From positions 9,717 through 73,716 of the forward strand of contig VRUD01000001.1 of NCBI GenBank assembly GCA_019456305.1: 64,000 nucleotides of DNA, read 5' to 3'. The position numbers and the translations under genes are program-made. Shown piece after piece: positions 2,228 through 61,862 of this stretch. Each line of letters starts with the position of its first letter. Position 1 is the stretch's first letter. Origin of the DNA: Cytophagales bacterium. Its GTDB lineage: Bacteria; Bacteroidota; Bacteroidia; Cytophagales; VRUD01. The notes under the pieces were generated by a model, which ran no database searches, was not told the origin of the DNA, and saw nothing but the letters and a program-made list of their open reading frames with translations.

Positions 2228-4333
2228 TTACAAACTTCTACCCAGATACTTCACAATCAAAAAAAGCATAACGAATCCTAATAAGTAATTAAAGTACCAT
2301 GGAATGCCCATATTCACAAACACCGCACAAACCAATAAGCTTACCACAGCCACAGTGATTGCATAAGGCAATTGCGTTCTCACATGATCTACATGATTAC
2401 AATTGGTTGCTAATGAGCTCAGGATGGTTGTGTCAGAAATGGGCGAGCAGTGGTCACCAAATACCGAACCGGCCAGCACTACGGAAATAACATTATAGAA
2501 TATCGGCATTGATTGCCCGGTTTCAAAACCACTTTGCTGGCATAATAGCCAGGTAGCGGGAAGCATCAAAGGGTATAAAATTGCCATCGTGCCCCAGCTT
2601 GATCCGGTTGAAAATGAGATCAGCGCTGCCAGGATAAAAACTACAGTGGGCATCCATACGGGAGAAATAGCACCGCTGAACAAGGAAGTAAGAAAATCGG
2701 CTGTATGCAGATCCCCGGTTATTTTTGCCAGCGACCATGCCAGGATCAGGATCAGTACTGCAGGAAGCATGGTTTTGAAACCAAATACTAATGTATCCAT
2801 TATTTTTCTTAGCGGCATGATCCTTTGAATGACGGTTAACAGAATGGCTAAAACGACACCTGATAATGACGCCCAGAGCAAAGCCACATAAGCATCAGCA
2901 TTGCCGATAATGATCCCGAGTTTCCTGAAAAATGCTACATCCTGTCCGTTGTTAAGATGGTAAAGGTTTTCCCATACATTCATAAAGGAATAATCCTGTA
3001 TGACAATTCCGGCCTCCAATAAATTATCAAAAGATTTGTGAGCGCCTGTAACCAAAAGCGCTGCTATTGTTACTAAGACTACTGATATAACGGGAATAAA
3101 TGCATTGTACCACTTTTGTTTTACACCCTCGACAGGGTCCAAATCTTTAAGTGATTCATTATTTTCGAATTTCGAATTTCGAGTTTCGAGTTTCGAGTTT
3201 CGAGTTTCGAATTTCGAATTTCGAGTTTCGAATTTCGAGTTTCGAATTTTGAGTTTCGTCCCGAGTACTCGGGATCGAATTTCAGCCTTATACATTGACC
3301 CGAAATCCTTTTTAAAGTATATCAAAAAGAACATAAATACCAGTGTGAAAATGGGATAGAAAGCATATTGCAGCGAATTCAAAAACATTGAATAAGCATT
3401 TTCATTGATCCTTAAGTTAACCGAAGCATCCTGGATATAACCAAGCTCAGCTCCGATCCAGGTGGTAATAAATGCGATAGCAGCTACAGGCGCTGCAGTA
3501 CTATCCACTATATAAGCAAGCTTTTCTCTGGATATCTTGAACTTATCTGTTACCGGGCGCATGGTGTTGCCAACGATAAGTGTATTGGCGTAATCGTCAA
3601 AGAAAATAGCAATGCCCAGAAACCAGGTAATAAATTGCGCACTTCTGGCAGACTTTGCGTATTTTGATAATTTGTCAACAACTCCTGCCATCCCTCCGTT
3701 TTTGGAAATGATCGCTACCATGCCGCCAATCAATGTTGAAAATAAAATTACCGACAAATGCCCTGTGTCCATCATTGCGTTAATGATATAATTATCAAGC
3801 ACGTTGTACATGGCTGGGATCCAGTTTTTAGGATGAAAGCCAAGTAATATAAGCGCTCCTGAAAATATACCCAGGAAAAGCGACACCAACACCTCTCTGA
3901 ATATCAGCGCCATGGCAATGGCAATAAGCGGAGGCAGAATGCTGAGCCAGGCAGGGATATGTCTGATTTTGAAAAATTTAGCTATTCCGGAGTCCGTGTC
4001 CTTTACCGTTATTTTCTTTGATCCGTCAATTATGACAGGTGCAATGCCCATCCCTTCTTTAAACAGGATGATCTTGTTTTTACCATCAAACTGAAATACA
4101 AATTTTCCTTTAATAGACCTGTCTCTGTTGTCGTTCCTGTCTAAAGCGGTTATTTTTACATCTACATTTTTCCTGAACACATATTCGGGCGCTTCTATTA
4201 CAAAGTTTTTGATCCTGAGGGCTTGGACAGAAATACTGTATGTATCTTTGTTTTGCCGGGTAATTTTGATATTTTGTGCACAGGTAAAAATTGAGCATAA
4301 TAACAGCAGGCTTATCAATTGTACCTTTTTCAT
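2228..4333 (-). CDS. NhaC-family Na+/H+ antiporter with an N-terminal extracytoplasmic domain
   Basis: Many TM segments plus the NhaC-type block YANTLIVGNTMRPVTDKFKISREKLAYIVDSTAAPVAA. Start is MKKVQLISLLLLCSIFTCAQ (4331-4333), or 12 nt upstream at 4345. The central loop carries a repeat insertion. Confidence 0.75.
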   Translation of the reverse strand: MKKVQLISLLLLCSIFTCAQNIKITRQNKDTYSISVQALRIKNFVIEAPEYVFRKNVDVKITALDRNDNRDRSIKGKFVFQFDGKNKIILFKEGMGIAPVIIDGSKKITVKDTDSGIAKFFKIRHIPAWLSILPPLIAIAMALIFREVLVSLFLGIFSGALILLGFHPKNWIPAMYNVLDNYIINAMMDTGHLSVILFSTLIGGMVAIISKNGGMAGVVDKLSKYAKSARSAQFITWFLGIAIFFDDYANTLIVGNTMRPVTDKFKISREKLAYIVDSTAAPVAAIAFITTWIGAELGYIQDASVNLRINENAYSMFLNSLQYAFYPIFTLVFMFFLIYFKKDFGSMYKAEIRSRVLGTKLKIRNSKFETRNSKFETRNSKLETRNSKFENNESLKDLDPVEGVKQKWYNAFIPVISVVLVTIAALLVTGAHKSFDNLLEAGIVIQDYSFMNVWENLYHLNNGQDVAFFRKLGIIIGNADAYVALLWASLSGVVLAILLTVIQRIMPLRKIMDTLVFGFKTMLPAVLILILAWSLAKITGDLHTADFLTSLFSGAISPVWMPTVVFILAALISFSTGSSWGTMAILYPLMLPATWLLCQQSGFETGQSMPIFYNVISVVLAGSVFGDHCSPISDTTILSSLATNCNHVDHVRTQLPYAITVAVVSLLVCAVFVNMGIPWYFNYLLGFVMLFLIVKYLGRSL
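3165..3285. repeat. Heptamer array (TCGAATT/TCGAGTT)n plus CCCGAGTACTCGGG core, inside the NhaC ORF
   Basis: About 13 tandem 7-mers at 3165-3258 followed by TCCCGAGTACTCGGGA at 3259-3274. On the - strand this translates as ..EIRSRVLGTKLKIRNSKFETRNSKFETRNSKLETRNSKFE.. with no stop codon. Confidence 0.85.
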
Positions 4334-4540
4334 ATTAAAAGTCATTTAATAATTTGGTGCGGGGTAAAATTATTCTTTTTTTGAAAGATTACTATATTAA
4401 TGTTGAGACAATTTACTACCTTTGATAGCTACATAAAAATAAGAGTTGGCAGCGGCAGCAGCAGGAGGCAGGACTGCCAACTGCCGCTGCCTACTGCTGC
4501 TTGTTTGTTTTGTTGTCATTTGTGTAGCTATTTTCCTACA

Positions 4541-7195
4541 ATGAAAAAACCACTTATCATATTCTTATTAATTTTATCGGGACTGCCTGCTGCCGGCTTA
4601 TTTTCTCAAACCCCTCCCGACAAATCGGGATCTCCGCTGCGCTCCGAAAAGATTGACAGCCTCCTGCAGGTCTTAAAAAATGCCAAAGAAGACACCACTA
4701 AAATAAAAACCCTCATTAATAAAGAGATTGGTAATAAGCAGGGCATTGCAGTTTCAAACATCAATATTGGAGTGATTTATACCGAGCAAAAGCAGTATGA
4801 TAAAGCGATAGAACGAATTAGTGAAGGTTTAAAACTGGCAAAAAACATTGGCCATAAAGAATGGATGCAGCTTGCTTATAAGAGTTTTACAGATTTGTAT
4901 GTAAAACAGAAGAATCATAAAAAAGCTTTAGAGTATCACCAACTTTATGTGCAGACAAAAGACAGCCTCTTCAACGAAGAAAAATCCAAAGACATAGGCA
5001 GGGTGGAAGCAAGGCACGAGACAGAAATGCAGATGATGGAAGAGCAGGCAAAGGTGAAGGCTGAAGCGGATAAGATAGAAAAGGAAAAAAAACGCAGGAA
5101 TTACTGGCAGTATTCGGCTATTTTTATCGTATTTGTTATTTTGTTTTTGAGTTTATTCCTGCTGACAAGGTTTCATATTCCCATAACTGTTGCAGAAGGG
5201 ATCATTTTCACTGTATTTCTGCTGTTTTTTGAGTTTATCCTGGTATTGGCTGAGCCATGGATAGAAGCTATCTCACACGGAGAACCGGCTATTATCCTTG
5301 CATGCAATGCAGCGCTTGCAGGAATGATTTTTCCCTTTCACAGTTTCTTTGAAGCTAAGGTGAAAGAAAGGATAGTAAAACAGTCGGCAGTTGGCAATAG
5401 GCAGTTGGCAAAAAGAAAATCCAATATTACAAAACTTACCATGTTGTTGATGATTGCCTTTACTAATAGCTTTTACAGCTATTCTCCTACTTACACAGAG
5501 TCGAACTTTTCTAAACCTATGAAGTTTAGGAAAGTTATTGTTAAGGGAGCGCTTAGTTTTTCCAATTCAGATAATCAAGCAAAAACCCAATTCGTAAATC
5601 GTAAGTCTGAAATCGTAAATCCTACCATTGATTCTCTTGAAAATATGCTCAAAGCCCTTTCTGTTGGTGAGGGACGGGGCAAAAATGAAATTTCCAGATT
5701 AAAAATTCTAACCCGACTCATCCTGGAATACGAATTAACTGACCCTAATAAAGCCTTGCAATACGGAATGGAGGGTTTGGCTTTAGCAAAGCGTATGGCA
5801 AATTTGCCTGATGCATTTTTAGCAAAAGAAGGTAAAATAGGTGTAGCATCTTGTTTAAATAATATGGGGCTGGTTCATCAGGCACAAGGCAGCTACCAAA
5901 AAGCTACGGATCAATTCCTCTATTCATTAAAAATTAAAAAAGAATTATTTAACTCCCTCCCTACTGGTAAGGACAGTGAATGGATTAAACATGGAATTGC
6001 CAACAGCTTAATCAATCTCGGAGAAGTAAACAGACTTCAGGGAAATTACGACAAAGCCATTGATTATGATCTGCAATCTTTACAAAATTATGAGCAGTTA
6101 AAAGAATCATCTTTCAAAGCTCTGGCAAGGTCTGGCCAAATAGGGATTTCAAATTGTTGGAATAATATTGCTATAATTTATTATTACCAGCGTAACTATG
6201 AAAAAACCCTGGATTATTTCTTTCAATCTATAAAAATTAAAGAGAAACTAGGCAATAAAAGATTAATTGCAGAAAATTTAGGTAATATAGGGGTTATTTA
6301 TAAAATTCAGGGTAAAATTGAAAAAGCAATGAAGTATTATATGAAATGTTTAACACTAAGAAAGCAATTGGGATCAACTGGAGGATTTTCCAGCATTTTG
6401 ATTAATATCGCAAATATTTATACCATGCAGGGTAAATATAAAAAAGCCCTAAACTACCACTTTCAGGCATTGAAAATTACTCAACAGTTAGGTTATAAAG
6501 ATCAATCTGCTTTATGTCTGGATAATATTGGGGATATATATTCAAAGCAAAAGTATTATAAAAAGGCCATCTTATACTTTCACAAAGGTATAAATATTGC
6601 AAAGGAGATTGGATCTAAAATAGTACTCATGGATAGCTATAAACACCTTTCTAATACGTATGCCCAACTGGTAGAACACCCTCTTGCTCCTATTACCAGG
6701 GCAGTTGCTTACAAGCAAGCTTTTGAATACCACAAATTATATGCAGCTATTAAAGACAGCCTGTTTAATGAAGAAAAATCAAAAGAGATCGGCAGGTTGG
6801 AAGAGCACTACCTGATAGAAAAGAAAATAGCGAAAGAAAAAGCTAAAGCCAAAGTAGAGGCGGTGATAAAATCCGAAAAAAAAGCGCAAAGGCATAGACT
6901 TCAATTTATGGGCAGCTTTATTGTCATTGTAGCATTGTTAATAGTTGTATTCACACTTGCCGGGGTTTATATTCCGATTGGTTTTGCAAAAATACTGATT
7001 TTCATTATCTTCGTGCTGTTATTTGAATTTATCCTGGTGTTGTTAGACCCAATGGTAGATGAATTTTCCGGTGGAGCACCGGCAATAAAGCTTGCTTTCA
7101 ATGCCATGGTGGCAGGGATGATGTATCCTTTACACAGGTTTCTTGAGTCTAAACTTAAAAGTATGATATTAAAAAAGAAAACGAAGAGAACATAA
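4541..7195 (+). CDS. TPR-repeat membrane protein; apparent fusion of two tandem paralogous units
   Basis: MKKPLIIFLLILSGLPAAGLFSQ is a signal-like start at 4541. The block TPR - DSLFNEEKSK(D/E)IGR coiled coil - 3 TM with LLFFEFILVL occurs twice (about 4541-5380 and about 5640-7195). The 4400 start of the track ORF reads through an upstream hairpin. Confidence 0.6.
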   Translation: MKKPLIIFLLILSGLPAAGLFSQTPPDKSGSPLRSEKIDSLLQVLKNAKEDTTKIKTLINKEIGNKQGIAVSNINIGVIYTEQKQYDKAIERISEGLKLAKNIGHKEWMQLAYKSFTDLYVKQKNHKKALEYHQLYVQTKDSLFNEEKSKDIGRVEARHETEMQMMEEQAKVKAEADKIEKEKKRRNYWQYSAIFIVFVILFLSLFLLTRFHIPITVAEGIIFTVFLLFFEFILVLAEPWIEAISHGEPAIILACNAALAGMIFPFHSFFEAKVKERIVKQSAVGNRQLAKRKSNITKLTMLLMIAFTNSFYSYSPTYTESNFSKPMKFRKVIVKGALSFSNSDNQAKTQFVNRKSEIVNPTIDSLENMLKALSVGEGRGKNEISRLKILTRLILEYELTDPNKALQYGMEGLALAKRMANLPDAFLAKEGKIGVASCLNNMGLVHQAQGSYQKATDQFLYSLKIKKELFNSLPTGKDSEWIKHGIANSLINLGEVNRLQGNYDKAIDYDLQSLQNYEQLKESSFKALARSGQIGISNCWNNIAIIYYYQRNYEKTLDYFFQSIKIKEKLGNKRLIAENLGNIGVIYKIQGKIEKAMKYYMKCLTLRKQLGSTGGFSSILINIANIYTMQGKYKKALNYHFQALKITQQLGYKDQSALCLDNIGDIYSKQKYYKKAILYFHKGINIAKEIGSKIVLMDSYKHLSNTYAQLVEHPLAPITRAVAYKQAFEYHKLYAAIKDSLFNEEKSKEIGRLEEHYLIEKKIAKEKAKAKVEAVIKSEKKAQRHRLQFMGSFIVIVALLIVVFTLAGVYIPIGFAKILIFIIFVLLFEFILVLLDPMVDEFSGGAPAIKLAFNAMVAGMMYPLHRFLESKLKSMILKKKTKRT

Positions 7196-7221: not shown

Positions 7222-7430
7222 GATTTAAAAATTATTATGGATGTTATTTTTTGGATAAAATTGATCGCTTTCTGGGCATTTGCTCTTGTTTTCTGTTTAT
7301 TATTTGCCCCGGAAGGTGATACACTTATATTTGGAAATAAGCTAAAACGTGGGACAGTAATTAAAATTATGTATTTATTCTTTTGGATTCTCTCAAGCTT
7401 GTTAATTCTTTGGGGCGTCATATAAATATA

Positions 7431-7742
7431 GTTGGCAATCGGCAATCGGCAGTCGGCAGTCCACAATCGACAGTCCACAGTCGGCAGTTGGCAGTTGGCA
7501 GTCCACAGTCCACAATCGGCAGTTGGCAGTCCATCCCGAGTACTCGGGAGCAGTCGGCAATTGTTTTTTGCCGACTGGGGACTGCCGACTGCCGATTGAT
7601 TAAGTTAAGTTTCTAAATCCAGTTGCCATATTGTTTTAATGGTTTGATTGTTATTTTCTTTTTTGTCGACTGTGGACTGCCGACTGCCGACTGATTTTTT
7701 TGCCGACTGGAGACTGTAGATTGCCGACTGCCGACTGCCAAC
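7431..7742. repeat. ~310-bp foldback built from GGCAGTC/GGCAGTT/CCACAGT heptamers around a CCCGAGTACTCGGG core
   Basis: 7431-7533 holds heptamers in GGCAGTY orientation and the core is at 7534-7549. 7570-7606 and 7664-7742 hold the complementary words (CCGACTG, GACTGCC). It lies between convergent genes. Confidence 0.8.
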
Positions 7743-7745
7743 TTT

Positions 7746-9296
7746 TTATTCACTTATTCCCTTTCCCGGGAGTGCAGCAATTATTCTATTGGCCATCTTC
7801 TGTATATTATCACCGATGATCCGTTGGATGTTATTTGAGTTTGAGTTATAGAAGATCTTTATTTTGCTGCCTGCAATTTGTTTGCCCTCCCTGTTATAAA
7901 TGGAGTAATGAACTATAAAATCCCGTTCATAATCCTGCCTCGTCCTGTCTAAACAATGCTCATAATTGGTATTTACTTCAAATTGAGTAACGAAGATATA
8001 ATATCCCAGGTCGTATTTTTTGTTGAAGTATTCAAAAAATTTAGGGTCTTTGATCTTTGCTCCAAAATATTTATTTTCAAACTTCATCTTGCCAAACCTG
8101 CCTGAAAAAGGAGATTCAGGGCTTTTTTTTAATTTTCTTTTCACTGTTTCGAGAGATACAGGCAAAGCCTTTTCTTTTGGAGGGGCATAATTATCTACAT
8201 AATCCGGTTCATTGACCAAATCCTGGTAATTATAAGTTAACGACCTGTATATTTTATTCAGATCAGTTACCGAATCTTCAATGGAGCCTCCCATAAGATG
8301 CACGGTTTCATAATCAGGGGACTGGATCATTGTATTTAAGTTTTTACGGAAAACCTGCCTTACTTTAGTTCTTGGAATACCAGATGCAGCAGCGATCTCA
8401 TCATCAGCATCGGAAAAATATAAATAAGGGTCAAAAGGTACGACTAAAACTTTTTTCTGGGTTCCGGGAACTGGGTTCTTGTCGGAGCGAAGCATAGATC
8501 CCCCCGAGTACTCGGGGGGGGTATTGGTTTCTGGGTACTGATCATCTATTCCCTCTATTTCCCCTTTTACTTCTATTTCCGTATTTACTTCTTTTTCCTC
8601 TATTTCCTCTACATCCTCTACTTCCTTTACTTCCTTTATTTCCTTTACTTTCTTCATATCTTCTTTTTTGCGTGACTTTATATATTCCTTTGCTAACACT
8701 TTTTCCACTGTTTCAACTTCACCCTTTGCCTTATATCCAACAATAAGTTTCTGGCCTGCTTTTATATGCAGGTCATTCAATCCCATTAATTGATCAAGAG
8801 ATATATTGTATTTTTTTGATAAACTCCAAAGGGTCTCTCCTGGTTTTACAATATGAATTATAGCTTCTTTGAATGTTTGTTTTTCTACCAGTATTGTAGG
8901 TTGATGTTCTCCGGTTTCCACGATATGTATGATAATACCTTTTTCAGAAATTCCGGATCTTTTGATGACATCAGGATGATATGGAATGTTGATGACCTGC
9001 CCTGTTTTCAAACCGTTTTCCAATGCAGGATTAATTTCCAGTAGCCCGGCAATGGGTACGCCATGTTTTGTAGAAATTCCATAGATGGTCTCACCGGCAG
9101 AAACCAGGTATATGAGATGGAGCTTGCCTTTGATCTTCTGGACACCGATCGAATCGCAGGAAGGATATGGGGAAATAGAGGAATAGGGAAATAAGGATTT
9201 CGAGTTTCGAGTTAAGGGTATAAGAGTATGTGTTATAGCAGAATAAACTATTGAACTAAAAAAAAACAATAGAAAAATAACAGAATTGTATTTCAT
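7746..9296 (-). CDS. LysM-domain protein (2 LysM) with an acidic KE-rich linker and an unknown C-terminal domain
   Basis: Two LysM-like blocks: YLVSAGETIYGISTKHGVPIAGLLEINPAL..GQVINIP and HIVKPGETLWSLSKKYNISLDQLMGLNDL..GQKLIV. It has an N-terminal signal sequence. Confidence 0.7.
   Translation of the reverse strand: MKYNSVIFLLFFFSSIVYSAITHTLIPLTRNSKSLFPYSSISPYPSCDSIGVQKIKGKLHLIYLVSAGETIYGISTKHGVPIAGLLEINPALENGLKTGQVINIPYHPDVIKRSGISEKGIIIHIVETGEHQPTILVEKQTFKEAIIHIVKPGETLWSLSKKYNISLDQLMGLNDLHIKAGQKLIVGYKAKGEVETVEKVLAKEYIKSRKKEDMKKVKEIKEVKEVEDVEEIEEKEVNTEIEVKGEIEGIDDQYPETNTPPEYSGGSMLRSDKNPVPGTQKKVLVVPFDPYLYFSDADDEIAAASGIPRTKVRQVFRKNLNTMIQSPDYETVHLMGGSIEDSVTDLNKIYRSLTYNYQDLVNEPDYVDNYAPPKEKALPVSLETVKRKLKKSPESPFSGRFGKMKFENKYFGAKIKDPKFFEYFNKKYDLGYYIFVTQFEVNTNYEHCLDRTRQDYERDFIVHYSIYNREGKQIAGSKIKIFYNSNSNNIQRIIGDNIQKMANRIIAALPGKGISE
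8500..8519. repeat. CCCCCCGAGTACTCGGGGGG palindrome inside the LysM ORF
   Basis: Perfect 20-bp palindrome, translated in frame as ..PPEYSGGS.. Confidence 0.8.
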
Positions 9297-12394: not shown

Positions 12395-13057
12395 ATGGAA
12401 ACTCAACAAAAACCCATAACGATTTACACAGAAGCCAACCCCAATCCAAACTCGCTGAAGTTTGTCGCTGATTTTATGTTGGCGCCTGAAGGCAGCAGCT
12501 TTGATTATCCCGATGTCAGCAGCGCTGCTGACGCACCATTGGCATTGGCGTTATTTCAGTTCCCGTTCGTAAGGCGTGTGTTTTTTGCATCCAATTTTGT
12601 TACCATCACAAAGGATGAGAATACAAGCTGGGAAGATATTGCTCCTTCGCTTAAAGATTTTATTAAGAGTTATCTTGAAGCAGGAAAGCCAATACCGCGC
12701 AGCAGCCCCCCTCTAACTCCCGGCCCACCTGAATCGGAGAAACGGGGAATCGGAGAAACGGAGAGAAGGAAAACGAAGCAATTCACCGATTCGGTAAGGA
12801 ATAGTGGAGGAGGGGCTCCTGATTCTGAAATAGTAAAGAAAATAAAGAATGTTTTAGAACAGTATGTCCGTCCTGCGGTTGAAATGGATGGCGGCAATAT
12901 TAGTTTTGACTCATTTCAGGATGGTGTTGTTAAGGTAAACCTGCAGGGCGCCTGCAGCGGCTGCCCTTCTTCTGCAATAACATTAAAGCAAGGGATAGAA
13001 AACCTTTTTAAACAGATGGTTCCGGAGGTGAAGGAAGTGGTGGCTGAGGGGGTTTGA
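12395..13057 (+). CDS. Nfu/NifU-like Fe-S cluster scaffold protein
   Basis: Nfu N-terminal domain (NPNSLKF...) and a C-terminal NifU domain with the CSGCPSS pair. The inter-domain linker carries a repeat insertion. Confidence 0.8.
   Translation: METQQKPITIYTEANPNPNSLKFVADFMLAPEGSSFDYPDVSSAADAPLALALFQFPFVRRVFFASNFVTITKDENTSWEDIAPSLKDFIKSYLEAGKPIPRSSPPLTPGPPESEKRGIGETERRKTKQFTDSVRNSGGGAPDSEIVKKIKNVLEQYVRPAVEMDGGNISFDSFQDGVVKVNLQGACSGCPSSAITLKQGIENLFKQMVPEVKEVVAEGV
12728..12807. repeat. CGGAGAAA-word hairpin element in frame in Nfu; homologous to 55450-55605
   Basis: CCTGAATCGGAGAAACGGGGAATCGGAGAAACGGAGAGAAGGAAAACGAAGCAATTCACCGATTCGGTAAGGAATAGTGG. It encodes PESEKRGIGETERRKTKQFTDSVRNSGG. Confidence 0.85.
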
Positions 13058-13083: not shown

Positions 13084-13335
13084 ATGTCTGTAAATTTACA
13101 TCCTCATGCGCTGGAGCGCATGCTATTACGCGGTGCTAATAAGAAAGAGGTAACAGCCACGGTTGAAAAAGGAGAAGTATTTCCTGCGAAATTAGGAAGA
13201 AAGGGTTTCAGGCGTAATTTCTCTTTTAAACAGCAGTGGAAGGGAAGATTTTATGAAACAAAACAAGTCGAAGTTTTTGCCGTAAAAGAAAATGATGATT
13301 GGCTTGTTATAACTGTTATTACCCGTTATTTTTAA
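13084..13335 (+). CDS. DUF4258-like small protein (putative toxin)
   Basis: The N-terminal HPHALERMLLRGANKKEV pattern (HA..RM..RGI..eeV) is typical of DUF4258. 83 aa, paired with the next ORF. Confidence 0.55.
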   Translation: MSVNLHPHALERMLLRGANKKEVTATVEKGEVFPAKLGRKGFRRNFSFKQQWKGRFYETKQVEVFAVKENDDWLVITVITRYF

Positions 13336-13345
13336 AAAAAATATT

Positions 13346-13603
13346 ATGAAATTAACATATGATCCCCGATATAATATCGCTTATATTTACTTCAAAGAAA
13401 AAAAAACAGAAGTTGAGTCTATAAAAATTAGTGATGAAGTAATAATAGATATTGATACTGATGGTAGTATATATGGTATTGAACTACTCAACGCTAATAA
13501 ACAATTATTACAAAATGGGGATAGGGGTAAAGTTCTTTTCGAGAATGAAGCTACAGGTGAAAAAAAAGAATTATCTATCCTGCCTTCAAAAATTTATTCC
13601 TAA
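13346..13603 (+). CDS. DUF2283-like small protein (putative antitoxin)
   Basis: MKLTYDPRYNIAYIYF...IIIDIDTDGSIYGIELLNA pattern. It starts 10 nt after the previous ORF. Confidence 0.6.
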   Translation: MKLTYDPRYNIAYIYFKEKKTEVESIKISDEVIIDIDTDGSIYGIELLNANKQLLQNGDRGKVLFENEATGEKKELSILPSKIYS

Positions 13604-13608
13604 GGTAC

Positions 13609-13715
13609 CTTCGGAAATTTCAGATGGAATATGGGAGGGAATTTCCGAAGTTTTCTTATTCCCAACACAAACTTCGGAAATCTCCTCCCTGCAGGCCACC
13701 TGAGATTTCCGAAGG
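13609..13715. repeat. Two tandem REP-like hairpins (CTTCGGAAAT stems)
   Basis: CTTCGGAAATT at 13609-13619 pairs with AATTTCCGAAG at 13640-13650. CTTCGGAAATCTC at 13672-13684 pairs with GAGATTTCCGAAG at 13702-13714. Confidence 0.75.
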
Positions 13716-13734
13716 TTTCCTGTCGAAACGTTTT

Positions 13735-13858
13735 TTTCTTTAACTTCTACCAAAAAATGAAAATGATTAGGCATCAGACAATATGACCATACATCCAGGT
13801 AATTTGAAAAATATTTATTACAAATACTTGTTTTTAAAAGAGATTTCTTACCTTTCAC
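13735..13858 (-). pseudogene. Relic of an IS200/RAYT-type Y1 (HUH) transposase
   Basis: ..YFSNYLDVWSYCLMPNHFHFLVEVKE.. contains the (C/V)xMPNHxHxL HUH block of REP-associated tyrosine transposases. The N-terminus and the catalytic-Tyr region are missing. Downstream in-frame codons are just the REP hairpins. Confidence 0.5.
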
Positions 13859-13882
13859 CCATTATTAACCTTCACTCCATTA

Positions 13883-13972
13883 GGGCATCTCTAAAAACTA
13901 CACCATACATTCCCCTCTATCAAGAGGGGCAAGGGGTGTGTTTTAAAAAATATGTAGTTTTTAGAGATGCCC
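13883..13972. mobile_element. 90-bp MITE-like element (copy 1), 20-bp perfect TIR GGGCATCTCTAAAAACTACA
   Basis: Identical at 90/90 positions to 49125-49214. It sits between the RAYT relic and the A2M start. Confidence 0.7.
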
Positions 13973-13993
13973 ATTAGATAATTTTTTATAATC

Positions 13994-16900
13994 ATGAAAA
14001 ATTCTATTAAAAACTTAGCAATTGCAGCCACCATGATCCTTGCTGCCTGCAGTGGCGGCAGATTAAAGGTCACTGATAAGAACTTTGCCGAAGAAATCGA
14101 GCTGCGGCAAAACCTGGTCTTTATTTTTAATAAAGACCTGATGCCCGATTCATTGTGTAACCTCTGGAATAAGACCGAATACATAAAATTTACACCTCCG
14201 GTGTTAGGTAAATTTCAATGGACCAGCCCCAGCGAATTAGTATTCTCTCCTGATCTTGGATTTGCTGCCAGCACAGAATATAAGGGTGAGTTTACTGAAA
14301 AATTATTGAATTTTGCAACGAAAGTCAATTCCTTACCGTCTGAACGGATTATTCCCTTCCACACTCCTTACCTTGACTTATTGGGTACAGATATCTTTTG
14401 GGCAAAAACTTCAGGAAAAATACAGGCGCGTATCAACCTGAATTTTAACTATAAGGTAAACCACCAGGAGCTTGCCCGGTTATTACACATAAAGGTTGAT
14501 GGCAAAGAAAGGGATTTTATTATGAACAGCTCCTCCATCGCACATACGATAGAAGTTGCGGTGGATGAACCTGCGGATAAGAAGTTTGATAACCTTTCAT
14601 TGAAAATAGTCATTGACAAAGGTTTAAAATGTATTGAAAGTGATTGGATAAGCAAGGAAAAGATTGAGCTGACAACCAAAATACCCGACAAAGGCAAATT
14701 CCAGATCACACAGGTGACCACCGAACACGATGGCGAACGGGGGATCATTCATGTTTATACCAACCAAGGTGTTGAAGATAAAAATATCAGAAGCCGGGTC
14801 ACTTTTCAGCCATACATTGCCTTCAAAATAGAAAAACTTGAATATGGCTTCCTGGTAAAAGGCGATTTTAAGACAGAAACTACGTATGAATTAACAATTT
14901 CTAAAGATATAAAAGGGATCTTCGGAAGCCGGTTAGGCAAAGACCATGAACAGTTCGTTGTTTTTGGTGAAGTGGAGCCTGACATAAGATTCACTGCTAA
15001 AAAAGCGATCTACCTTACCGGCAAAGGAACAAAAAATGTGGGGATCAAGATCGTCAATATTCCCACGGTTAATGTAAAAATTTACAAGATATATAAAAAT
15101 AATATCCTGGCCTTTCTGAAAAGTTCCGGCGCCTTCAATTACCATGACGACTATTATGATGATTATTATTGGTATGGCAGCTCAAATCTTGGTACATGGG
15201 GCGATGTGGTGCTCGACAGGGACTACAAAACTAAAGACCTCAAAAAGTTAAATGCGGCCAGCTTATTAAACCTGAATTTCCGTGATATTAACCAATTTAA
15301 GGGAATATTTGTAATAGAGGTAAGCTCCAAAGAAGACCGCTGGCTCAAGGCGTCCCAAACTGTTGCCATTTCTGATGTCGGGCTCATTGTTAAAGAAACA
15401 AAGAACGCCATCCTGGTATTTGCCAATTCAATTTTAACGGCAGAACCGTTGGCAGGCATTGATGTTGGATTGGTGAGTTCAAACAACCAGTTTGTTTACA
15501 ATCTAAACACAGATAATGACGGGGTGGCTGTTTTTAAAGACATCCGCAAAAAAGCTGCCGGCTTTAATATTAAAATGGTAACAGCCAGGGATGGCGAAGA
15601 TTTTACCTACCTGCATTTCAGGCAGTCAAAAGTTGAAAATTCAAGATACGAAGTGGGTGGCAGCCGGGAAAATCCTGCCGGCTACCAGGCGTTCATCTAT
15701 GGCGACCGCAATATTTACAGGCCGGGAGAAACCATCCATGTCAACACAATTATCAGGAATGAAAAATGGGAACCTGTGGGGAAGATCCCCATCAAGCTGA
15801 AATTGCTTTTACCCAATGGGAAAGAGTATAGATTGATCAAAGGCAAATTAAACAGCCAGGGTGCATTTGAAACTTCCATTGAGCTGTCTTCATCTACCGT
15901 TACCGGAACCTATACGTTAGAAGTTTATTCTTCAAATGATGTATTGCTGAATTCCGAATATATCAGCGTAGAAGAATTTATGCCCGACAGGATCAAGGTC
16001 AATGTTACCCTCAATAATGTTGTGGACGGGCGTGTGCGTCCATTACATCCGGGTGAAGACCTTGAAGTATCAGCAACTGCCTTAAACCTGTTCGGCCCGC
16101 CTGCTGCGAACAGGAATTATGAGATGGAAATGGTATTTAACAGGAAATATTTTTCGCCTAAAGGACTGCGGGATTATAACTTTTATATCAGCGGCACGGA
16201 TAATACCTCTTTTGACCGGGAATACCGGGAAGGTAAAACAGATGAGAATGGGGTAGCTATTGAGGAATTCCATATCCCTGAAGTATATGAAAACATGGGA
16301 ATGCTTTCAGGCAAAGTATATGTAACCGTATTTGATGAAACAGGCAGGCCTGTTAACAGGATCAATAGCTTCGATGTGGTCACGCAGGATGTTTTCTATG
16401 GTATCAAATATTTTGATACTTATGTTGCCACTAATAAGGCGTTGAGAATACCGCTCATTGCAATTAATAATGATGGAACGGTGTTGCAGAATATTCCGGC
16501 AAGGGTACAGATCATCAAAAGAACGTGGCATACCGTAATTGAGAAGCGAAGATCAGGAAAGTACCGTTATGTTTCTCAAAAGAAAGAAGAAGTGATGGAA
16601 GAGAGAATGATGGATATCAGCGGTATAAAAACATATTTTGCTTATAAGCCCACTATTTCCGGTGAATATGAAGTCAGGATTAGCAAGCAGGGAACAGATT
16701 CCTATGTAAAACAATATTTCTATGCCTATGGCTGGGGACGTACCGAATCCACATCATTTGAAGTTGACAAAGAAGGGCAGGTTACCATTGAGCTGGATAA
16801 AGACAAGTATAAGGTTGGTGACGATGCAAAGATACTGTTTAAAACGCCATTTTCTGGAAAGCTGCTGGTAACTGTAGAAAGAAATAAAGTTTTTGATCAT

Positions 16901-44003: not shown

Positions 44004-44368
44004 TTTATCACTATTGTCCGGGAAAATTTAGAACATAACTTTCCCTGTCTGTCTCAGGCAGATAAGTTGTTTAAAAATAATAGTTGGTCCCGCCTCAGGC
44101 GGGAGCAGCAAGCAGTTGGCAAAATGGTAGTTCGCAACAAGAAAACAAAGAACTTCGCAACAAGTCAGAAGAAGTAGGACGAATGTTGAATCACATGATA
44201 GAAAATCCTGAAAAGTATCGATCAAGATAGTAGGCAATTTTGCCAATTGCCCATTGCCAACTGCCAACTTCTCTATAAAGCCGACTGCTCCCGAGTACTC
44301 GGGATGTATAATTTTTTTTAATCTATTTTCAAAGTATATGTTCTTTTGTGGTTTTGCTATATAGTTCT

Positions 44369-46631: not shown

Positions 46632-46660
46632 TGATTTTGGTTAGTTGGAAAGTGTTTTTT

Positions 46661-46787
46661 GCCACAAAAGCACAAAAGCACTAAATCCCACTAAAAATTA
46701 ACTAATTGATTTTCAGGGTTTTGTGGGATTTAGTGCTTTGGTGTTTTAGTGGCATTTTTATTTTTTGGACTTTTTAGAGTGGACTCA
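46661..46787. repeat. Second copy of the 2066-2218 hairpin (outer left arm missing)
   Basis: GCCACAAAAGCACAAAAGCACTAAATCCCAC..loop..TTTTGTGGGATTTAGTGCTTTGGTGTTTTAGTGGCATTTTT..GAGTGGACTCA. Confidence 0.8.
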
Positions 46788-47047
46788 AATAGTAAAATTA
46801 AATTCATGGCAAAAGTACTTCATCTCTCACAGAATATCAACCAAATTTATTTTATAAAAAAAACATCACTAAAAATTTGTATATTAAAAAACCATCCAAT
46901 ACCTTCGCCCGCAATTTTTGATCCACGCCTGTAGGCGCGGGATCAATATTTAATTTATTATTTAAACAAACACGGAACACGGAACGTACAGACGCCCAAA
47001 TTGGGCGTCTCAACATTCCTCAAATTCCTCAAAACAAATTAATTATC

Positions 47048-47587
47048 ATGAACAAGACAATAAAAAAAATTTTAGCAATTACAGCAATAGCTTTGATTGC
47101 TATGCCTTTGTTTTACAGTTGTAAGAAAGGCGAAAATGACCCGTTTATTTCTTTACGTTCCAGGGATAAACGAATTACCGGGGAATGGAAATTGGTTTCA
47201 GCTGAAGAAACTTCTACTTGGAGTCGTGACTTTGGATTTGGCGCTACTAGTGGTTCAACTACTACTATTTATGATGGTAAGACATCAGTTACAACCGGGG
47301 GTGGTTCTTCCTTATACACATTAACCATAACTTTTGAAAAAGATGGAACTGCCACTTATAAGGAAGATGATGATGGTGATATTGAAGACGTCACAGACGA
47401 ATGGTTTTGGTTAGATTCGAAGAAAAACAAAACGACCATTTCTCATCCATTTGGATTTTTTGTAGTTGATCAACTTAAGAACAAAGAATTAATTTTAAAA
47501 GATTCCGGAACAAATAATCAAAGTGGGTCTGGATGGTATGACAATAATTCATGGGAAGAAACCTGGACTTTTGAAAAACAAAAGTAA
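47048..47587 (+). CDS. Lipocalin-like lipoprotein (paralog family A)
   Basis: Lipobox ..PLFYSC|KKGEND and ITGEWKLVS motif. 179 aa. Confidence 0.6.
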   Translation: MNKTIKKILAITAIALIAMPLFYSCKKGENDPFISLRSRDKRITGEWKLVSAEETSTWSRDFGFGATSGSTTTIYDGKTSVTTGGGSSLYTLTITFEKDGTATYKEDDDGDIEDVTDEWFWLDSKKNKTTISHPFGFFVVDQLKNKELILKDSGTNNQSGSGWYDNNSWEETWTFEKQK

Positions 47588-47610
47588 ATTTCTTCATAAA
47601 GGAATATAAT

Positions 47611-47652
47611 AAAAAAGCCCTGCTCCCGAGTACTCGGGACGGGGCTTTTTTT
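47611..47652 (+). terminator. Intrinsic-terminator-like hairpin with the CCCGAGTACTCGGG core in its loop
   Basis: AAAAAAGCCCTGC-TCCCGAGTACTCGGGA-CGGGGCTTTTTTT, 24 nt after the stop. Confidence 0.7.
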
Positions 47653-48104
47653 CAACTACATGAATGTTTTTTTAAAAGAATAAAAATCGTTAAATTTGAT
47701 TAGTACAATCAGAGTCTCCCGGAAATCCTAAATTCAAACATATTACTATCTTAAAAAGGGGACTCTGATGGGACTCCTTAAAAATATTAGAATATATTTT
47801 TCGCACACATCAGAGTCCCCTGTTCAGGTTTTTGGTATGACTGCCTGCAACGTGTAGGCTTTTCGAAAGGCAAGCAGGTACGAAGTTTGTATTGGCGGGA
47901 GACTCTGATGGGACTGAAATTTATTTTATAAAAAAACATCACTAAAAATTTGTATATTAAAAAACCATCCAATACCTTTGCCCGCAGTTTTTGATCCACG
48001 CCTGTAGGCGCGGGATAAATATTTAACTTATTATTTAAACAAACACGGAACGTACAGACGCCCAAATTGGGCGTCTCAACATTCCTCAAAACAAATTAAT
48101 TATC

Positions 48105-48950
48105 ATGAAAACAATTAAAAGATCTTTAGTGGTAATAGCCACTTGTTTATTGGTTTTAGCAGTTATGGAAAGTTGTAAAAAAACCGCAACACCAAAAAAG
48201 TTAGACGGTAAATGGAAAGCTACAAAAGGTACGAGTACTCGTACAAGTACACAAAAATTGACGTGGTTGGGGTGTACACCAAATGATTGCAGCAGTACCT
48301 CAACTACTACCGAAACTTTTGATGGTGCTACCTGGACGGGTACAATGACATCTTCGAGTACTGATGGGAATGGAATTGTCACACCTAATCCGGACGTACC
48401 CATTGATGATAAGGAAACCATGTCTTTATCTTTTGATAAAAAGAACGGTACCTTTGAGCAATCATTTGTAGGGACTAATACTTATAAAAATCCTTATTGG
48501 AGCAATGTATATGATGATACTACCGCAGCTCCTCTATATAATGGTGGCGCTCTGGATCGAAAAGATGTTACTTCATCAACCGGAACGATGAAAGGAGATT
48601 TTCAGGTTACGGGAGGACTTGGTGATACTGATAAGAAATCTCAGTTTATTCTTTTTGGGACATCATGGACTGATAATTGGACTTCAACTTATTCCTACTT
48701 CCTGACTGGTACTGATAGTTCTGTTAATGTTACGAATTTGTATGTCCAAGATTGGCCTAATTATATTAAAGTGCCAACATCTGAATCAGGTACAGATGGT
48801 TCAATCGGAGAATCAAGTGATGGAGATGTATGGACTGTAACAGAGAACAAAAAAGGTACAATGACAATGAACCAAACTGAAAGTTCTACTAATTCAGATG
48901 GAAGCAACACCTCTTCTTATACCGAGGAATTAACTCTGGAAAAGGAATAA
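48105..48950 (+). CDS. Thr/Ser-rich lipoprotein (paralog family A)
   Basis: Lipobox ..AVMESC|KKTATPKK and LDGKWKAT motif. 281 aa. It shares 5' and 3' flanks with 47048-47587. Confidence 0.6.
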   Translation: MKTIKRSLVVIATCLLVLAVMESCKKTATPKKLDGKWKATKGTSTRTSTQKLTWLGCTPNDCSSTSTTTETFDGATWTGTMTSSSTDGNGIVTPNPDVPIDDKETMSLSFDKKNGTFEQSFVGTNTYKNPYWSNVYDDTTAAPLYNGGALDRKDVTSSTGTMKGDFQVTGGLGDTDKKSQFILFGTSWTDNWTSTYSYFLTGTDSSVNVTNLYVQDWPNYIKVPTSESGTDGSIGESSDGDVWTVTENKKGTMTMNQTESSTNSDGSNTSSYTEELTLEKE

Positions 48951-49026
48951 TATCAGTTTTAGTTGATAAAATAGTGTAGTAGAGGCTATTTTTGAGAGTT
49001 TAAAAAATTGTTGTACTTATTTATAT

Positions 49027-49066
49027 AAAAAGCCCTGATCCCGGGTATTCGGGAGGGGCTTTTTTT
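49027..49066 (+). terminator. Terminator-like hairpin with core variant CCCGGGTATTCGGG
   Basis: AAAAAGCCCTGA-TCCCGGGTATTCGGGA-GGGGCTTTTTTT. Confidence 0.65.
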
Positions 49067-49124
49067 CAACTACATGAATGTTTTTTTAAAAGAATAAAAA
49101 TCGTTAAATTAGTAATTACCTTTT

Positions 49125-49214
49125 GGGCATCTCTAAAAACTACACCATACATTCCCCTCTATCAAGAGGGGCAAGGGGTGTGTTTTAAAAAATATGTAGT
49201 TTTTAGAGATGCCC
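49125..49214. mobile_element. 90-bp MITE-like element (copy 2) with a 12-bp target-site duplication
   Basis: Identical to 13883-13972. It is flanked by TAATTACCTTTT at 49113-49124 and 49215-49226. Confidence 0.8.
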
Positions 49215-49693
49215 TAATTACCTTTTTTAAAAAACACCCCCATCCCCAGCCTGAACACAAACGCATTTGATAGAACATAATAGTCTGCATTTGCCTCAAC
49301 AGCCCAGTGATCGTTAAGCATAAAATCATTTCCCAGACCGAATGAAACATCAAAACTACTTCCCTTTAGTGGGGCTTTTACCAAATAATAACCTTTACTT
49401 CTTAAAAAAAAGGTTTCAGAAAAATATAACCTTAGACCGAGCGCTGCAGCGCTTCTGCTTAAAGAATTAAAATACTCAAAACCCCCGGATAAGGCGAATT
49501 TATCAGCAGCAAAGTAGTTAAGGTCAAATCCAAAGCCAACGCTTTTACCAAAATTCTTGAATGGCTTTTTGTTGTTTGTATTGTATAGATTAACCCCACC
49601 GTTTAGCAGAAAATCTCCCTGGTAAGGTTGGGCATTTGCTGTTAAAACACAACTCATTGCCGCTACAAAGACAGAAAATTTGAATGCTTTCAT
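49214..49693 (-). CDS. Small outer-membrane beta-barrel protein
   Basis: Signal peptide MKAFKFSVFVAAMSCVLTANA|Q followed by alternating beta-strand pattern. 159 aa. Its stop codon TAG is formed at the MITE junction. Confidence 0.65.
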   Translation of the reverse strand: MKAFKFSVFVAAMSCVLTANAQPYQGDFLLNGGVNLYNTNNKKPFKNFGKSVGFGFDLNYFAADKFALSGGFEYFNSLSRSAAALGLRLYFSETFFLRSKGYYLVKAPLKGSSFDVSFGLGNDFMLNDHWAVEANADYYVLSNAFVFRLGMGVFFKKGN

Positions 49694-49732
49694 AGACACA
49701 AAGGTATGAAAAAAATCTGAATAAGAATTAAA

Positions 49733-54817: not shown

Positions 54818-55975
54818 TTACAAGCCATACCTTCTTTTTAATTCATCACACGTCCATCTTATGGTGTCATTGATGTCTCTGAAATTCAAGCCTTCTTTTC
54901 CGTTAGACAGGCTTAATAAATTCCTTATCTTTCCATTATTGTAATGCAATGAATTTAAAGATGATTTTACAATATCTTTAGTGACCAAGGGCGGCTTTCC
55001 TGTGAAAAGAGATCTTATTATTTCAAATCTCCATGCAATACCACCCCAAAATGGTGATACCATGATATTGGGTTTTCTTTTATCAAAATTCAGCGCAATA
55101 ATATCAAATAATTCCTTATAAGATATTTTACCGGCAAAAATTAAGTACCTTTCATTATTTATCCCGGTATTGATCAACTGCAGCGTGATTTCAGCCAGAT
55201 CCCTCACATCAATATAATGCACCTCCCGGGTAGTATAAAAAGGATATTGTTTCCATACATATTGAAATATTTTTGAACTGCCTTTTTTCCAATTACCAGG
55301 ACCTAATACCACTGCCGGGTTTAATATAACGGCATTGAGTCCTTCTTCTATGCCTCGCCATACTTCCATTTCCGCAAGATATTTTGTTTGGGCGTATAAT
55401 GACACTTCTTCATAGACTGAAAATTGGATTTTTTCATTAATACCAGCCTTCCCCCCACTATTCCTTACCGAATCGGTGAATGGGTGAATCGGTGAATCGG
55501 TGAATTGCTTCGTTTTTCTTCTCTCCGTTTCTCCGATTCCCCGTTTCTCCGTTTCAGGAGGGCTGGTGTGGCTGCCGCTTATTCCCCGTTTCTCCGATTC
55601 AGGGAGGCTGGTAGGTTTGCCTATTGCCGCAACCGAACTTAAATGACAAAGTTTTTTTACACCTTTTTTGATACATACATTTACAATATTTGAGGTACCC
55701 TCTACATTTGTTTTGAATATTAATTTCTTGTCATGGTAAGATAATGAAACCATGGCAGCCGTATGGATAACCGTATCAACGCCTTCAATACTTTTTTCTA
55801 AACCCGTAATATCAAGTATATCTCCTTCTATCCACTCGATTTTATCAGCAATATCAGCAACGAGAGACAGATCGCTCGTTTTTCTTTTTAAAGCGCGCAG
55901 GCGATTGCCTTGCTGTAGTAATTTTCTGGCTATAAAACTCCCTACCAAACCAGTGCAGCCGGTGATGAAAAACAT
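54818..55975 (-). CDS. NAD-dependent epimerase/dehydratase (SDR) family protein
   Basis: GCTGLVG Rossmann motif at the N-terminus and a YAQTK catalytic Y..K. An insertion of about 50 aa lies between SSVAAIG and the YxxxK region. Confidence 0.8.
   Translation of the reverse strand: MFFITGCTGLVGSFIARKLLQQGNRLRALKRKTSDLSLVADIADKIEWIEGDILDITGLEKSIEGVDTVIHTAAMVSLSYHDKKLIFKTNVEGTSNIVNVCIKKGVKKLCHLSSVAAIGKPTSLPESEKRGISGSHTSPPETEKRGIGETERRKTKQFTDSPIHPFTDSVRNSGGKAGINEKIQFSVYEEVSLYAQTKYLAEMEVWRGIEEGLNAVILNPAVVLGPGNWKKGSSKIFQYVWKQYPFYTTREVHYIDVRDLAEITLQLINTGINNERYLIFAGKISYKELFDIIALNFDKRKPNIMVSPFWGGIAWRFEIIRSLFTGKPPLVTKDIVKSSLNSLHYNNGKIRNLLSLSNGKEGLNFRDINDTIRWTCDELKRRYGL
55450..55605. repeat. Expanded copy of the CGGAGAAA-word element, in frame in the epimerase
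   Basis: Its rc contains CCTGAATCGGAGAAACGGGGAAT...CGGAGAAACGGAGAGAAGAAAAACGAAGCAATTCACCGATTC..GGTAAGGAATAGTGG. It encodes ..PESEKRGISGSHTSPPETEKRGIGETERRKTKQFTDSPIHPFTDSVRNSGG.. Confidence 0.85.
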
Positions 55976-60470: not shown

Positions 60471-61862
60471 TTATTTACTACCAACCATTTTCTCAGGTTT
60501 TACCCATTCATCAAACTGTTTATCAGTCACCAATCCAAGCCCGATAGCTGTTTCACGAAGCGTTTTACCCTCTTTGTGTGCTTTTTTAGCAATTTTAGCC
60601 GCGTTTTCATATCCTATATGGGTGTTCAATGCGGTTACAAGCATCAGGGAATTTTCAAGATTTTCCTTTATCACTGCTTCATTTGGCTTAATACTCACTG
60701 CACAGTTCTTATTGAATGAATCACAGGCATCTCCCAAAAGACGTGCAGAGGAAAGCAGGTTAAATATCATCATGGGTTTGAATACGTTTAGCTCAAAATG
60801 CCCGTTCATACCGCCCACATTGATGGCAGCATCATTACCGATCACCTGTGCACAGACCATTGTCAATGCCTCTGCCTGAGTAGGGTTTACCTTCCCGGGC
60901 ATAATGGATGACCCGGGTTCATTTTCAGGAATTAAAATTTCACCGATGCCGCACCTTGGTCCTGAAGCAAGCATACGGATATCATTGGCAATTTTCATCA
61001 GGCTCACAGCCAATTGTTTTAATGCTCCGGAAGTCTCTACAATAGCATCGTGTGCTGCTAAAGCTTCAAATTTGTTCTCAGCAGTTCGGAAGGGTAAACC
61101 GGTAAGTCCTGCGATCTTTTTAGCTACCAGTTCAGCAAAACCTTTCGGAGCATTTAAGCCTGTGCCCACAGCAGTGCCACCCAATGCCAACTCGCCCAGG
61201 TGGTCTAATGTATTATTTAATGCTTTTAATCCATGATCAATCTGTGATACATAACCTGAGAACTCCTGCCCCAACGTTAGAGGCGTAGCATCCATAAAGT
61301 GCGTTCTGCCGATCTTTACTACGTCCATAAATTTCTTTGTCTTCTCATCCAAAGTATTACGCAATTTCTTTACAAAAACGATCGTATTGTCTGTGATCAT
61401 TTTATATGCAGCAATGTGCATAGCGGTAGGAAATGTATCATTGGAGGATTGAGATTTATTTACATCATCATTGGGGTGGATCTTTTTTTTCTCATCATCT
61501 AATTTTCCGCCCAGCAAAACATGGGCTCTGTTGGCAATTACCTCATTCACATTCATATTTGTTTGTGTTCCTGATCCGGTCTGCCATACAACAAGGGGAA
61601 ATTGGTCATCATGTTTGCCTTCTGATATTTCATCACATACTTTCATGATAATATCTGCCTTATCTTTTGGGAGCGTTCCCAACTCACAATTCGTTTGAGC
61701 GGCAGCTTTTTTAAGAATTGCAAATGCGTAAATAATTTCAATGGGCATCTTTTGCCCTCCGATGGTGAAATTTTGTTTAGACCGTTGAGTTTGAGCGCCC
61801 CAATATTTATCAGACGGTACCTCCACTGTGCCCATGGTGTCTTTTTCCATTCTGGTATTCAT
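60471..61862 (-). CDS. fumC: Class II fumarate hydratase
   Basis: [13 protein letters not shown] signature loop and the EKDTMG..VP....YGAQTQRS start. 463 aa. Confidence 0.95.

Follow-up and report, generated by a model that had tools for sequence, protein, structure and literature searches.

What is the 90-bp repeat that interrupts the last codons of a small outer-membrane protein (OMP) gene in DNA from a Cytophagales bacterium, how did it come to lie between two copies of a 12-bp sequence, and does its arrival matter to the protein? These questions are raised by a stretch of 64,000 nucleotides, referred to here as the window (contig VRUD01000001.1 of assembly GCA_019456305.1, positions 9,717 to 73,716), in which a preliminary description made from the sequence had picked out two copies of the repeat. 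In all likelihood the repeat is a non-autonomous miniature inverted-repeat transposable element (MITE) belonging to the IS5 group of insertion sequences (ISs), and its second copy inserted with a 12-bp target duplication and with negligible effect on the OMP.

The two copies, at 13883-13972 (copy 1) and 49125-49214 (copy 2), are identical at 90 of 90 positions (repeat family D11 within the window) and are bounded by perfect terminal inverted repeats (TIRs) of 20 bp, just as had been described. The 20-mer GGGCATCTCTAAAAACTACA is found four times in the window against an expectation of zero, and the four sites are the two ends of each copy, inverted with respect to each other. For copy 2, the left TIR is at 49125-49144 on the plus strand and the right TIR, its perfect inverted copy, is at 49195-49214 on the minus strand. 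Copy 2 lies between the OMP gene (minus strand) and a convergent lipoprotein gene (plus strand), and copy 1 lies 21 bp upstream of the ATG, at 13994, of a gene encoding 1803 amino acids. A third identical 90-mer is present at positions 1103-1192 of scaffold_408 from the same metagenome (L180). This sole further copy was located by a peptide search with spurious open reading frames (ORFs) that read through the MITE (P0005, leading to L180), and it brings the number of 90/90 copies to three, in three distinct contexts. Apart from such read-through ORFs nothing spans the 90 bp, and the element has no coding capacity. As a single strand it folds into a long hairpin of -26.9 kcal/mol (z = -9.3). 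Promoter and terminator scans around both copies gave nothing inside the MITE, the only terminator seen near the copies being that of the convergent lipoprotein gene at 49039-49054. A gathering-threshold Rfam scan of the window gave the MITE no family, and blastn with the 90-bp element against plasmids and phages returned nothing meaningful. Short (below the limit of about 300 bp), devoid of an ORF, flanked by TIRs and target duplications, present in multiple copies and sharing its TIRs with ISs, the element is a prokaryotic MITE, as first proposed, with at least three identical copies in one metagenome. Its recent mobility, also part of that proposal, is argued by the identity of the copies and by contigs that break at the element; such breaks in other assemblies indicate that the MITE is multicopy in the sample.

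The TIR can be used to trace the element to larger relatives. In a scan of species-representative genomes, the exact 20-mer was found in 52 stretches of DNA from metagenome-assembled genomes (MAGs), mainly of Sulfurovum, Arcobacter, a Bacteroidetes bin and a Cytophagales bin; a TIR scan of viral contigs gave no match. Most of these 20-mers face outwards at a distance of 20-140 bp from a contig end, which is the signature of a multicopy element breaking assemblies. Elements that share the TIR differ inside by taxon, for example a 111-bp MITE in Sulfurovum, a 99-bp MITE in the Cytophagales bin (L001) and a 170-bp MITE in a Bacteroidota MAG (L014), and three loci (L007, L023 and L034) have a solitary 20-mer with no transposase nearby. 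Longer TIR-bearing elements are found in Arcobacter sp. BB30 and in Bacteroidetes bin-6658. In the BB30 MAG, GGGCATCTCTAAAAACTACA matches at 20 of 20 positions the left end of a multicopy IS5-group IS. This end shows 77% identity over 97 nt (E = 6e-9) to the Aliarcobacter faecis plasmid NZ_CP053838 (pAFAEC), a similarity that takes in the start of the transposase gene, in plasmid DNA annotated as an IS5 family transposase. The plasmid IS (L057, 2501-3779) is 1279 bp long and flanked by the 4-bp duplication ATAT, and its ends (IRL, GGGTACCTCTAAAAAC; IRR, GGGAACCTCTAAAAAC) each agree with the MITE TIR at 14 of 16 positions. Its transposase of 346 amino acids matches NCBIfam NF033581 (IS5 family, 2.7e-79) and contains the Pfam domains DUF772 (PF05598) and DDE_Tnp_1 (PF01609); it is on this related autonomous IS alone that the domains were demonstrated. 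No single contig held a full-length IS with the exact TIR, those of BB30 and bin-6658 all ending inside the element. Judged by its ends, the window element can be classed as a MITE of the IS5 group. An exact 20-bp end common to MAGs of Bacteroidota and Campylobacterota points to an IS group that has spread horizontally.

How copy 2 entered its site can be read from its junctions. The 12-mer TAATTACCTTTT abuts both ends of the element, at 49113-49124 and 49215-49226, and has no other occurrence in the window, even with one mismatch allowed. It forms an atypical target duplication, the right copy of which encodes the Gly-Asn codons of the protein tail and the first two bases of the OMP stop. If the element and one 12-mer are removed, GGT AAT TAC TAA is restored and the rebuilt empty site reads ...GGTAATTACTAATTT...; in the window itself, the right junction runs from GATGCCC into AAAAGGTAATTA. 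The junctions were checked in two more assemblies of the same sample, namely ENA ERZ23499938 scaffold_328 (L178) and a Logan contig of SRR8799001 (L179). Both match the T6A6 tract and the left junction. The Logan contig terminates precisely at ...GGTAATTA, and scaffold_328 crosses the whole 90-bp element, matches the first bases of the right junction and stops 3 nt beyond the element (AAA). Downstream of the OMP gene of a relative (L053) comes AAAAACATTCATGTAGTTGAAAAAAAAGCCCC..., which is also the terminator region found just past the MITE in the window, and this synteny confirms that the two flanks of copy 2 are adjacent. An exact 56-nt repeat (47641-47696 and 49055-49110) ends 2 bp before the 12-mer. 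That the 12-mer is part of a longer paralogous repeat was ruled out, as similarity to the paralogous copy at 47590-47703 stops at 49110-49118; this check for a longer pre-existing repeat was negative, and the 12-bp duplication noticed at the outset is real. Two composite origins were also rejected: a 4-bp duplication together with 8 bp of the element needs an exact 8-bp coincidence, and two nearby insertions do not reproduce the observed order. Because the scenarios that start from 4 bp all need an 8-bp copy exactly at one junction, the 12 bp is read as a true, if atypical, duplication. No empty-site allele from a close relative was found in the collections, where the 90% cluster of the OMP has a single member.

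Elements of the IS5 group are expected to duplicate 4 bp at A/T-rich sites (TTAA or YTAR-like). Exactly 4 bp is seen at copy 1 (ATTA, at 13879-13882 on the left and 13973-13976 on the right), at the L180 copy (ATAA, between ...TATATAA and ATAAACT...), at the A. faecis plasmid IS (ATAT in L057) and at six related MITE copies (TTAA in L014, L035 and L045, TTTT in L017, ATAA in L018 and ATCT in L052), copy 1 and L180 being two of the three copies of the 90-bp MITE. Among the one-ended flanks at contig ends TTAA predominates, and five older copies (L001, L026, one in L031 and two in L052) have a decayed or absent duplication. Two cases do not follow this rule. In Sulfurovum, a 111-bp MITE whose TIRs are of the same type (L031, 958-1068) has 8 bp, TAAATACA, with 4 bp at its sister copies, and copy 2 of the window has 12 bp. 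The norm of the family is 4 bp at A/T-rich tetranucleotides, and the 12 bp of copy 2 is real but an outlier. The inconsistency in duplication length that the preliminary description had pointed out is a genuine one, with copy 1 as the normal case; the longer CCATTA flank that it had considered for copy 1 takes two bases from the element, the true duplication being ATTA. Taken together, the 8 bp of L031 and the 12 bp of copy 2 suggest that this IS5 subgroup occasionally makes long duplications.

The gene at the site of copy 2 (49214-49699, minus strand) encodes a small outer-membrane beta-barrel of 159-161 amino acids with a signal peptide and a match to Pfam OMP_b-brl (E = 2.1e-6), and the protein is identical to one annotated in a Cytophagales bacterium MAG (P0001). 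It ends in ...FRLGMGVFFKKGN (...FRLGMGVFF-KKGN), followed by a TAG stop at 49216-49214 on the minus strand that spans the junction, its G being the terminal base of the MITE. The replacement of the terminal Tyr of a reconstructed FFKKGNY* by this junction stop is present as it had been reported; the effect on the ORF is a change from KKGNY* to KKGN*, and the strand FRLGMGVFF is intact. Three orthologues with 66-71% identity end in ...GVFF (P0002 and P0003) or ...GVFFLN (P0004), and at the DNA level three relatives (L053, L054 and L056) end in GTG TTT TTT TAA. When 1.84 billion cluster representatives were searched exhaustively, 47 relatives came up, and their alignments typically finish at query residues 155-157, on or beside the last residue of the match. 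Proteins of the family normally finish with the conserved last strand, fRxGxxxF(F/L/I), which aligns to F156-F157 of the window protein; F, L or I is the final residue in 30 of the 50 family sequences listed, in most cases right at the motif fRxGxxxF, and about a quarter of the family has a short polar tail (RK, KN, LN or TKF). From these alignments, the beta-signal strand of the window protein is FRLGMGVFF, with F157 as its conserved terminal aromatic. Between the FF codons and TAAAAAAACATTC, the window is about 140 bp longer than L053, a surplus that comprises both 12-mers, the MITE and another 26 bp or so. The DNA encoding the KKGN(Y) tail is lineage-specific and has no counterpart in L053 or L056. 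In these two relatives the stop follows directly after FF within T7A7, and the window has T6A6 and then lineage-specific DNA (49215-49260). On this comparison, an insertion of about 38 bp at the ancestral stop codon displaced the stop ahead of the MITE, or independently of the MITE.

The interior of the element contains a recurrent motif. A pyrimidine/purine hairpin, CCCCTCT-ATCA-AGAGGGG, lies at 49154-49171 (plus strand) and gives, with the preceding TT, the 20-mer TTCCCCTCTATCAAGAGGGG. It is followed at 49175-49183 (plus strand) by the tail GGGGTGTGT, which mirrors the purine arm with A replaced by T and is a candidate third strand for an intrastrand purine-motif triplex. With its loops of 4 and 3 nt, the unit consists of CCCCTCT, AGAGGGG and GGGGTGT, a triplex-type sequence (CCCCTCTATCAAGAGGGGCAAGGGGTGTGT). 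Within the window it occurs only inside the two MITE copies (49154-49183 and 13912-13941). Elsewhere, more than 120 exact matches to the hairpin 20-mer are found, among those listed, in metagenome contigs (L058-L177) with unrelated flanks, and what recurs is CCCCTCT-ATCA-AGAGGGG, separated by a short linker or a variable GC hairpin from the GGGGTGTGT that follows, frequently as inverted pairs or arrays. The purine arm is mirrored in the tail (A to T or A), and arm and tail covary in at least 8 arm types, for instance CCCCCTT with GGGGGTT, CCCCTCTTT with GGGGAGATT and CCCCTCCC with GGGGAGGG, and arm-tail cross-matches between arm types are almost absent. All the sequence features of a class II purine-motif intrastrand triplex are there (arm, loop, arm, short loop, mirror strand and a stem of at least 6), and the hairpin with its mirror tail has the predicted geometry of such a triplex. 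The folding tools used cover Watson-Crick and wobble pairs only, and an Rfam E-value scan of eight loci with the hairpin unit gave no matching family. Motifs of this class have already been described under the names BoxC, PIT and TM_ECO (Holder et al. 2015, PMC4666352). Two MITEs from metagenomes (L091 and L170) have the same layout as the window element, with an invariant hairpin and G-tail and with TIRs that have diverged to GGAGTTCTAAAAAT.

Could the 12-bp repeat of copy 2 have arisen otherwise than by transposition, through faulty assembly at a multicopy repeat or through a secondary event (local duplication or repair) at an ordinary 4-bp insertion? The repeat is anomalous in that every other copy of the exact 90-bp MITE has 4 bp. 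The two other assemblies also fail to get across the element, with independent confirmation only 3 nt past its right end, and triplex motifs have been linked with local genomic instability (PMC4666352). Even so, this origin is unlikely, for the 12-mers abut both termini exactly, a 4-bp-plus-8-bp history would need a precisely placed 8-bp copy, and the adjacency of the flanks is backed by the same terminator downstream of the OMP in L053. Moreover, the bases GATGCCCAAA of scaffold_328 agree with the window, and the 8-bp duplication at the related MITE of L031 suggests that transposases of this group occasionally produce long duplications. A further question is whether the insertion has consequences for the protein. 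A terminal aromatic residue is a classical feature of the beta-signal of OMPs, and the preliminary description had suggested that the MITE removed this C-terminal signal for the beta-barrel assembly machinery (BAM), impairing or modulating assembly of the OMP. A terminal Tyr does vanish from the reconstructed pre-insertion ORF by the junction stop, but it lay 5 residues past the conserved F156-F157 and is not homologous to the terminal aromatic residue, and an effect on BAM recognition is for that reason unsupported. With orthologues that stop straight after FF, alignments of 47 relatives that end at query residues 155-157, a lineage-specific tail, and natural tails such as RK, KN and LN in the family, the removal of the beta-signal aromatic is not borne out and an effect on assembly is very improbable; any displacement of the terminal Phe is older than the MITE.

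The least probable of the alternatives, to the point of hardly being credible, concerns the nature of the element itself, which might be of the repetitive extragenic palindromic (REP) or REPIN type (REP doublets forming hairpins) and have been moved as single-stranded DNA by a Y1 transposase (REP-associated tyrosine transposase, RAYT) and not as a DDE-type MITE. The interior hairpin unit resembles a REP and is found elsewhere in inverted pairs, and a truncated RAYT/IS200-like Y1 transposase ORF (13586-13858, minus strand; motif YCLMPNHFHFLV) lies 25 bp from copy 1, with matches to Pfam Y1_Tnp (E = 0.0085) and NCBIfam REP_Tyr_transpos (E = 0.0013) that are both below the curated cutoffs. This fragment, however, has its own, different repeats, inverted copies of CTTCGGAAAT and ATTTCCGAAG that overrun the 3' part of the ORF at about 13600-13720. 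A six-frame search of 673 kb of loci found no ORF with an HUH motif beside the hairpin units other than the window's own fragment. The perfect 20-bp TIRs in common with IS5-group ISs and the target duplications are features that REPINs do not generate. The assignment to the IS5 group, with a 12-bp insertion event and a neutral outcome, has its own difficulties. In the 64-kb window, no IS5-group transposase of any kind was found, and a cognate transposase in this organism is only presumed. The pre-insertion sequence of the OMP locus is a reconstruction and not an observation, and L180 is tied to the window DNA by the shared metagenome only, such that the organism may differ. A 12-bp duplication is not a normal product of the IS5 group; the only other long case is the 8-bp repeat of L031, which alone could be a chance match at roughly the 10-20% level. 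Finally, the T6 count behind the KKGN tail comes from one read set (three assemblies), and with a T7 tract the protein would stop at FF and the MITE would lie wholly between genes.

On the preferred account of an IS5-group MITE, an IS5-group DDE transposase (DUF772 with DDE_Tnp_1) would recognise the 20-bp TIRs in trans, and the 50-bp interior carries one hairpin-plus-mirror-tail unit of BoxC/TM-like type. Transposition normally duplicates a 4-bp A/T-rich target such as TTAA, ATAA or ATTA. Copy 2 would have landed in the last codons of the small OMP gene and duplicated 12 bp, most likely in an off-register event with strand transfers at two different A/T tetranucleotides (TAAT ... TTTT), and the Tyr and stop of a lineage-specific 5-residue tail would have been exchanged for the junction TAG. 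The effect on the OMP is probably negligible, as FRLGMGVFF, the true C-terminus in relatives, is untouched; this apparent neutrality, which we infer, means that the insertion has little consequence for the gene, only a non-conserved tail having changed. Beyond this gene, copy 2 with its 12 bp and L031 with its 8 bp point to occasional long duplications within this IS5 group. A more speculative possibility, put forward tentatively, is that the triplex-type hairpin is a selected portable module and that IS5-type MITEs are one of the vehicles spreading it. This idea comes from the hairpin and G-tail being invariant in the window, L091 and L170 while the TIRs diverged, and from the presence of the 20-mer more than 120 times in unrelated metagenome contexts. 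If it is correct, this MITE would for the first time tie intrastrand-triplex repeats physically to a mechanism of transposition, and an unusual strand transfer at two sites, performed by this group of transposases, might then lie behind the 8-bp and 12-bp duplications.

The window is rich in other repeats. Next to copy 2, a lipoprotein-gene module is tandemly duplicated (46844-47696 and 47917-49110), with upstream regions that are 93% identical, genes of 179 and 281 amino acids and diverged terminator hairpins; each module ends in the 56-nt stretch mentioned above, which is 100% identical despite its diverged surroundings. An element of about 214 bp with imperfect inverted repeats (AGTACAATCAGAGTCTCCCGG ... 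CGGGAGACTCTGATGGGACT) is found at 47702-47915, and its place in the first lipoprotein module matches the MITE site in the second. At copy 1, the RAYT fragment and the MITE have immediately upstream of them a DUF4258/DUF2283 gene pair (13084-13603), probably a toxin-antitoxin-like module. A repeat of about 110-135 bp (12717-12830 and 55432-55614) is inserted in frame, in the same gene-relative orientation, in two unrelated genes, which encode a NifU-like protein (12395-13057, plus strand) and an NAD-dependent epimerase (54818-55975, minus strand). Both genes gain the peptide ...PESEKRGIGETERRKTKQFTDS...VRNSGG, resembling the coding insertions of Rickettsia palindromic elements. Two intergenic sites (2093-2220 and 46660-46789) carry members of a family of palindromic repeats, GCCACAAAAGCACAAAAGCACTAAATCCCAC... 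and its inverse, with 86-89% identity. Heptanucleotide arrays, (TTTCGAG)n and (GGCAGTC/GGCAATC)n, are found in both orientations at 3149-3272, 5380-5419, 7416-7754 and 44238-44269, some of them as large palindromes. Two families of gene-end hairpins, terminator- or REP-like in appearance, are of the CCCGAGTACTCGGG type (8498, 11909, 44285, 47620 and 49035) and the AGAGACGCCCAATTTGGxCGTCTCT type (42504, 46988, 48054 and 56824). At 132-168 on the minus strand there is a DUF805b RNA motif of Rfam (41.6 bits, above the gathering score). Exact-protein look-ups of the edge genes at 60471-61862 and 2228-4345 returned nothing on record, probably as a result of differing called start codons.

The 90-bp MITE can be placed by comparison with known systems. 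It has in common with the A. faecis IS the terminal GGGxxxCTCTAAAAAC and, at two of its three copies, the 4-bp A/T-rich duplication; unlike that IS, it is only 90 bp long, has symmetric identical TIRs and an unrelated interior with the triplex-type hairpin, and has one copy with 12 bp. Correia elements of Neisseria are TIR-bounded and palindromic, occur in many near-identical copies at A/T targets near genes, duplicate TA and carry promoter and integration host factor (IHF) sites, and both they and other bacterial MITEs sometimes alter gene ends or transcripts. In contrast to Correia elements, no promoter- or terminator-like signal was found in the 90-bp MITE. REPINs, like the unit inside the MITE, are short hairpins, often in inverted pairs and at high copy number, and a RAYT-like fragment does lie beside copy 1; the MITE differs from REPINs in its TIRs and duplications and in ends that match an IS with a DDE transposase. 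The closest likeness of the interior is to TM_ECO, CCCTCNCCC-N3-6-GGGNGAGGG-N3-GGGNGAGGG, for which triplex formation has been shown in vitro (PMC4666352). Both TM_ECO and the MITE unit consist of a pyrimidine arm, a loop, a purine arm, a short linker and a G-rich mirror third strand, and both are highly conserved and widespread. The window unit, CCCCTCT-ATCA-AGAGGGG-CAA-GGGGTGTGT, has a different sequence and a predicted stem of 7 triplets against 9 in TM_ECO. Holder et al. reported that TM_ECO was never found associated with transposons, transposases or integrases (PMC4666352). Unlike TM_ECO, the MITE unit sits in a TIR-bounded, duplicated mobile element, which places a BoxC/TM-like motif inside a demonstrably mobile element and adds a link that is absent from the main study of the motif.

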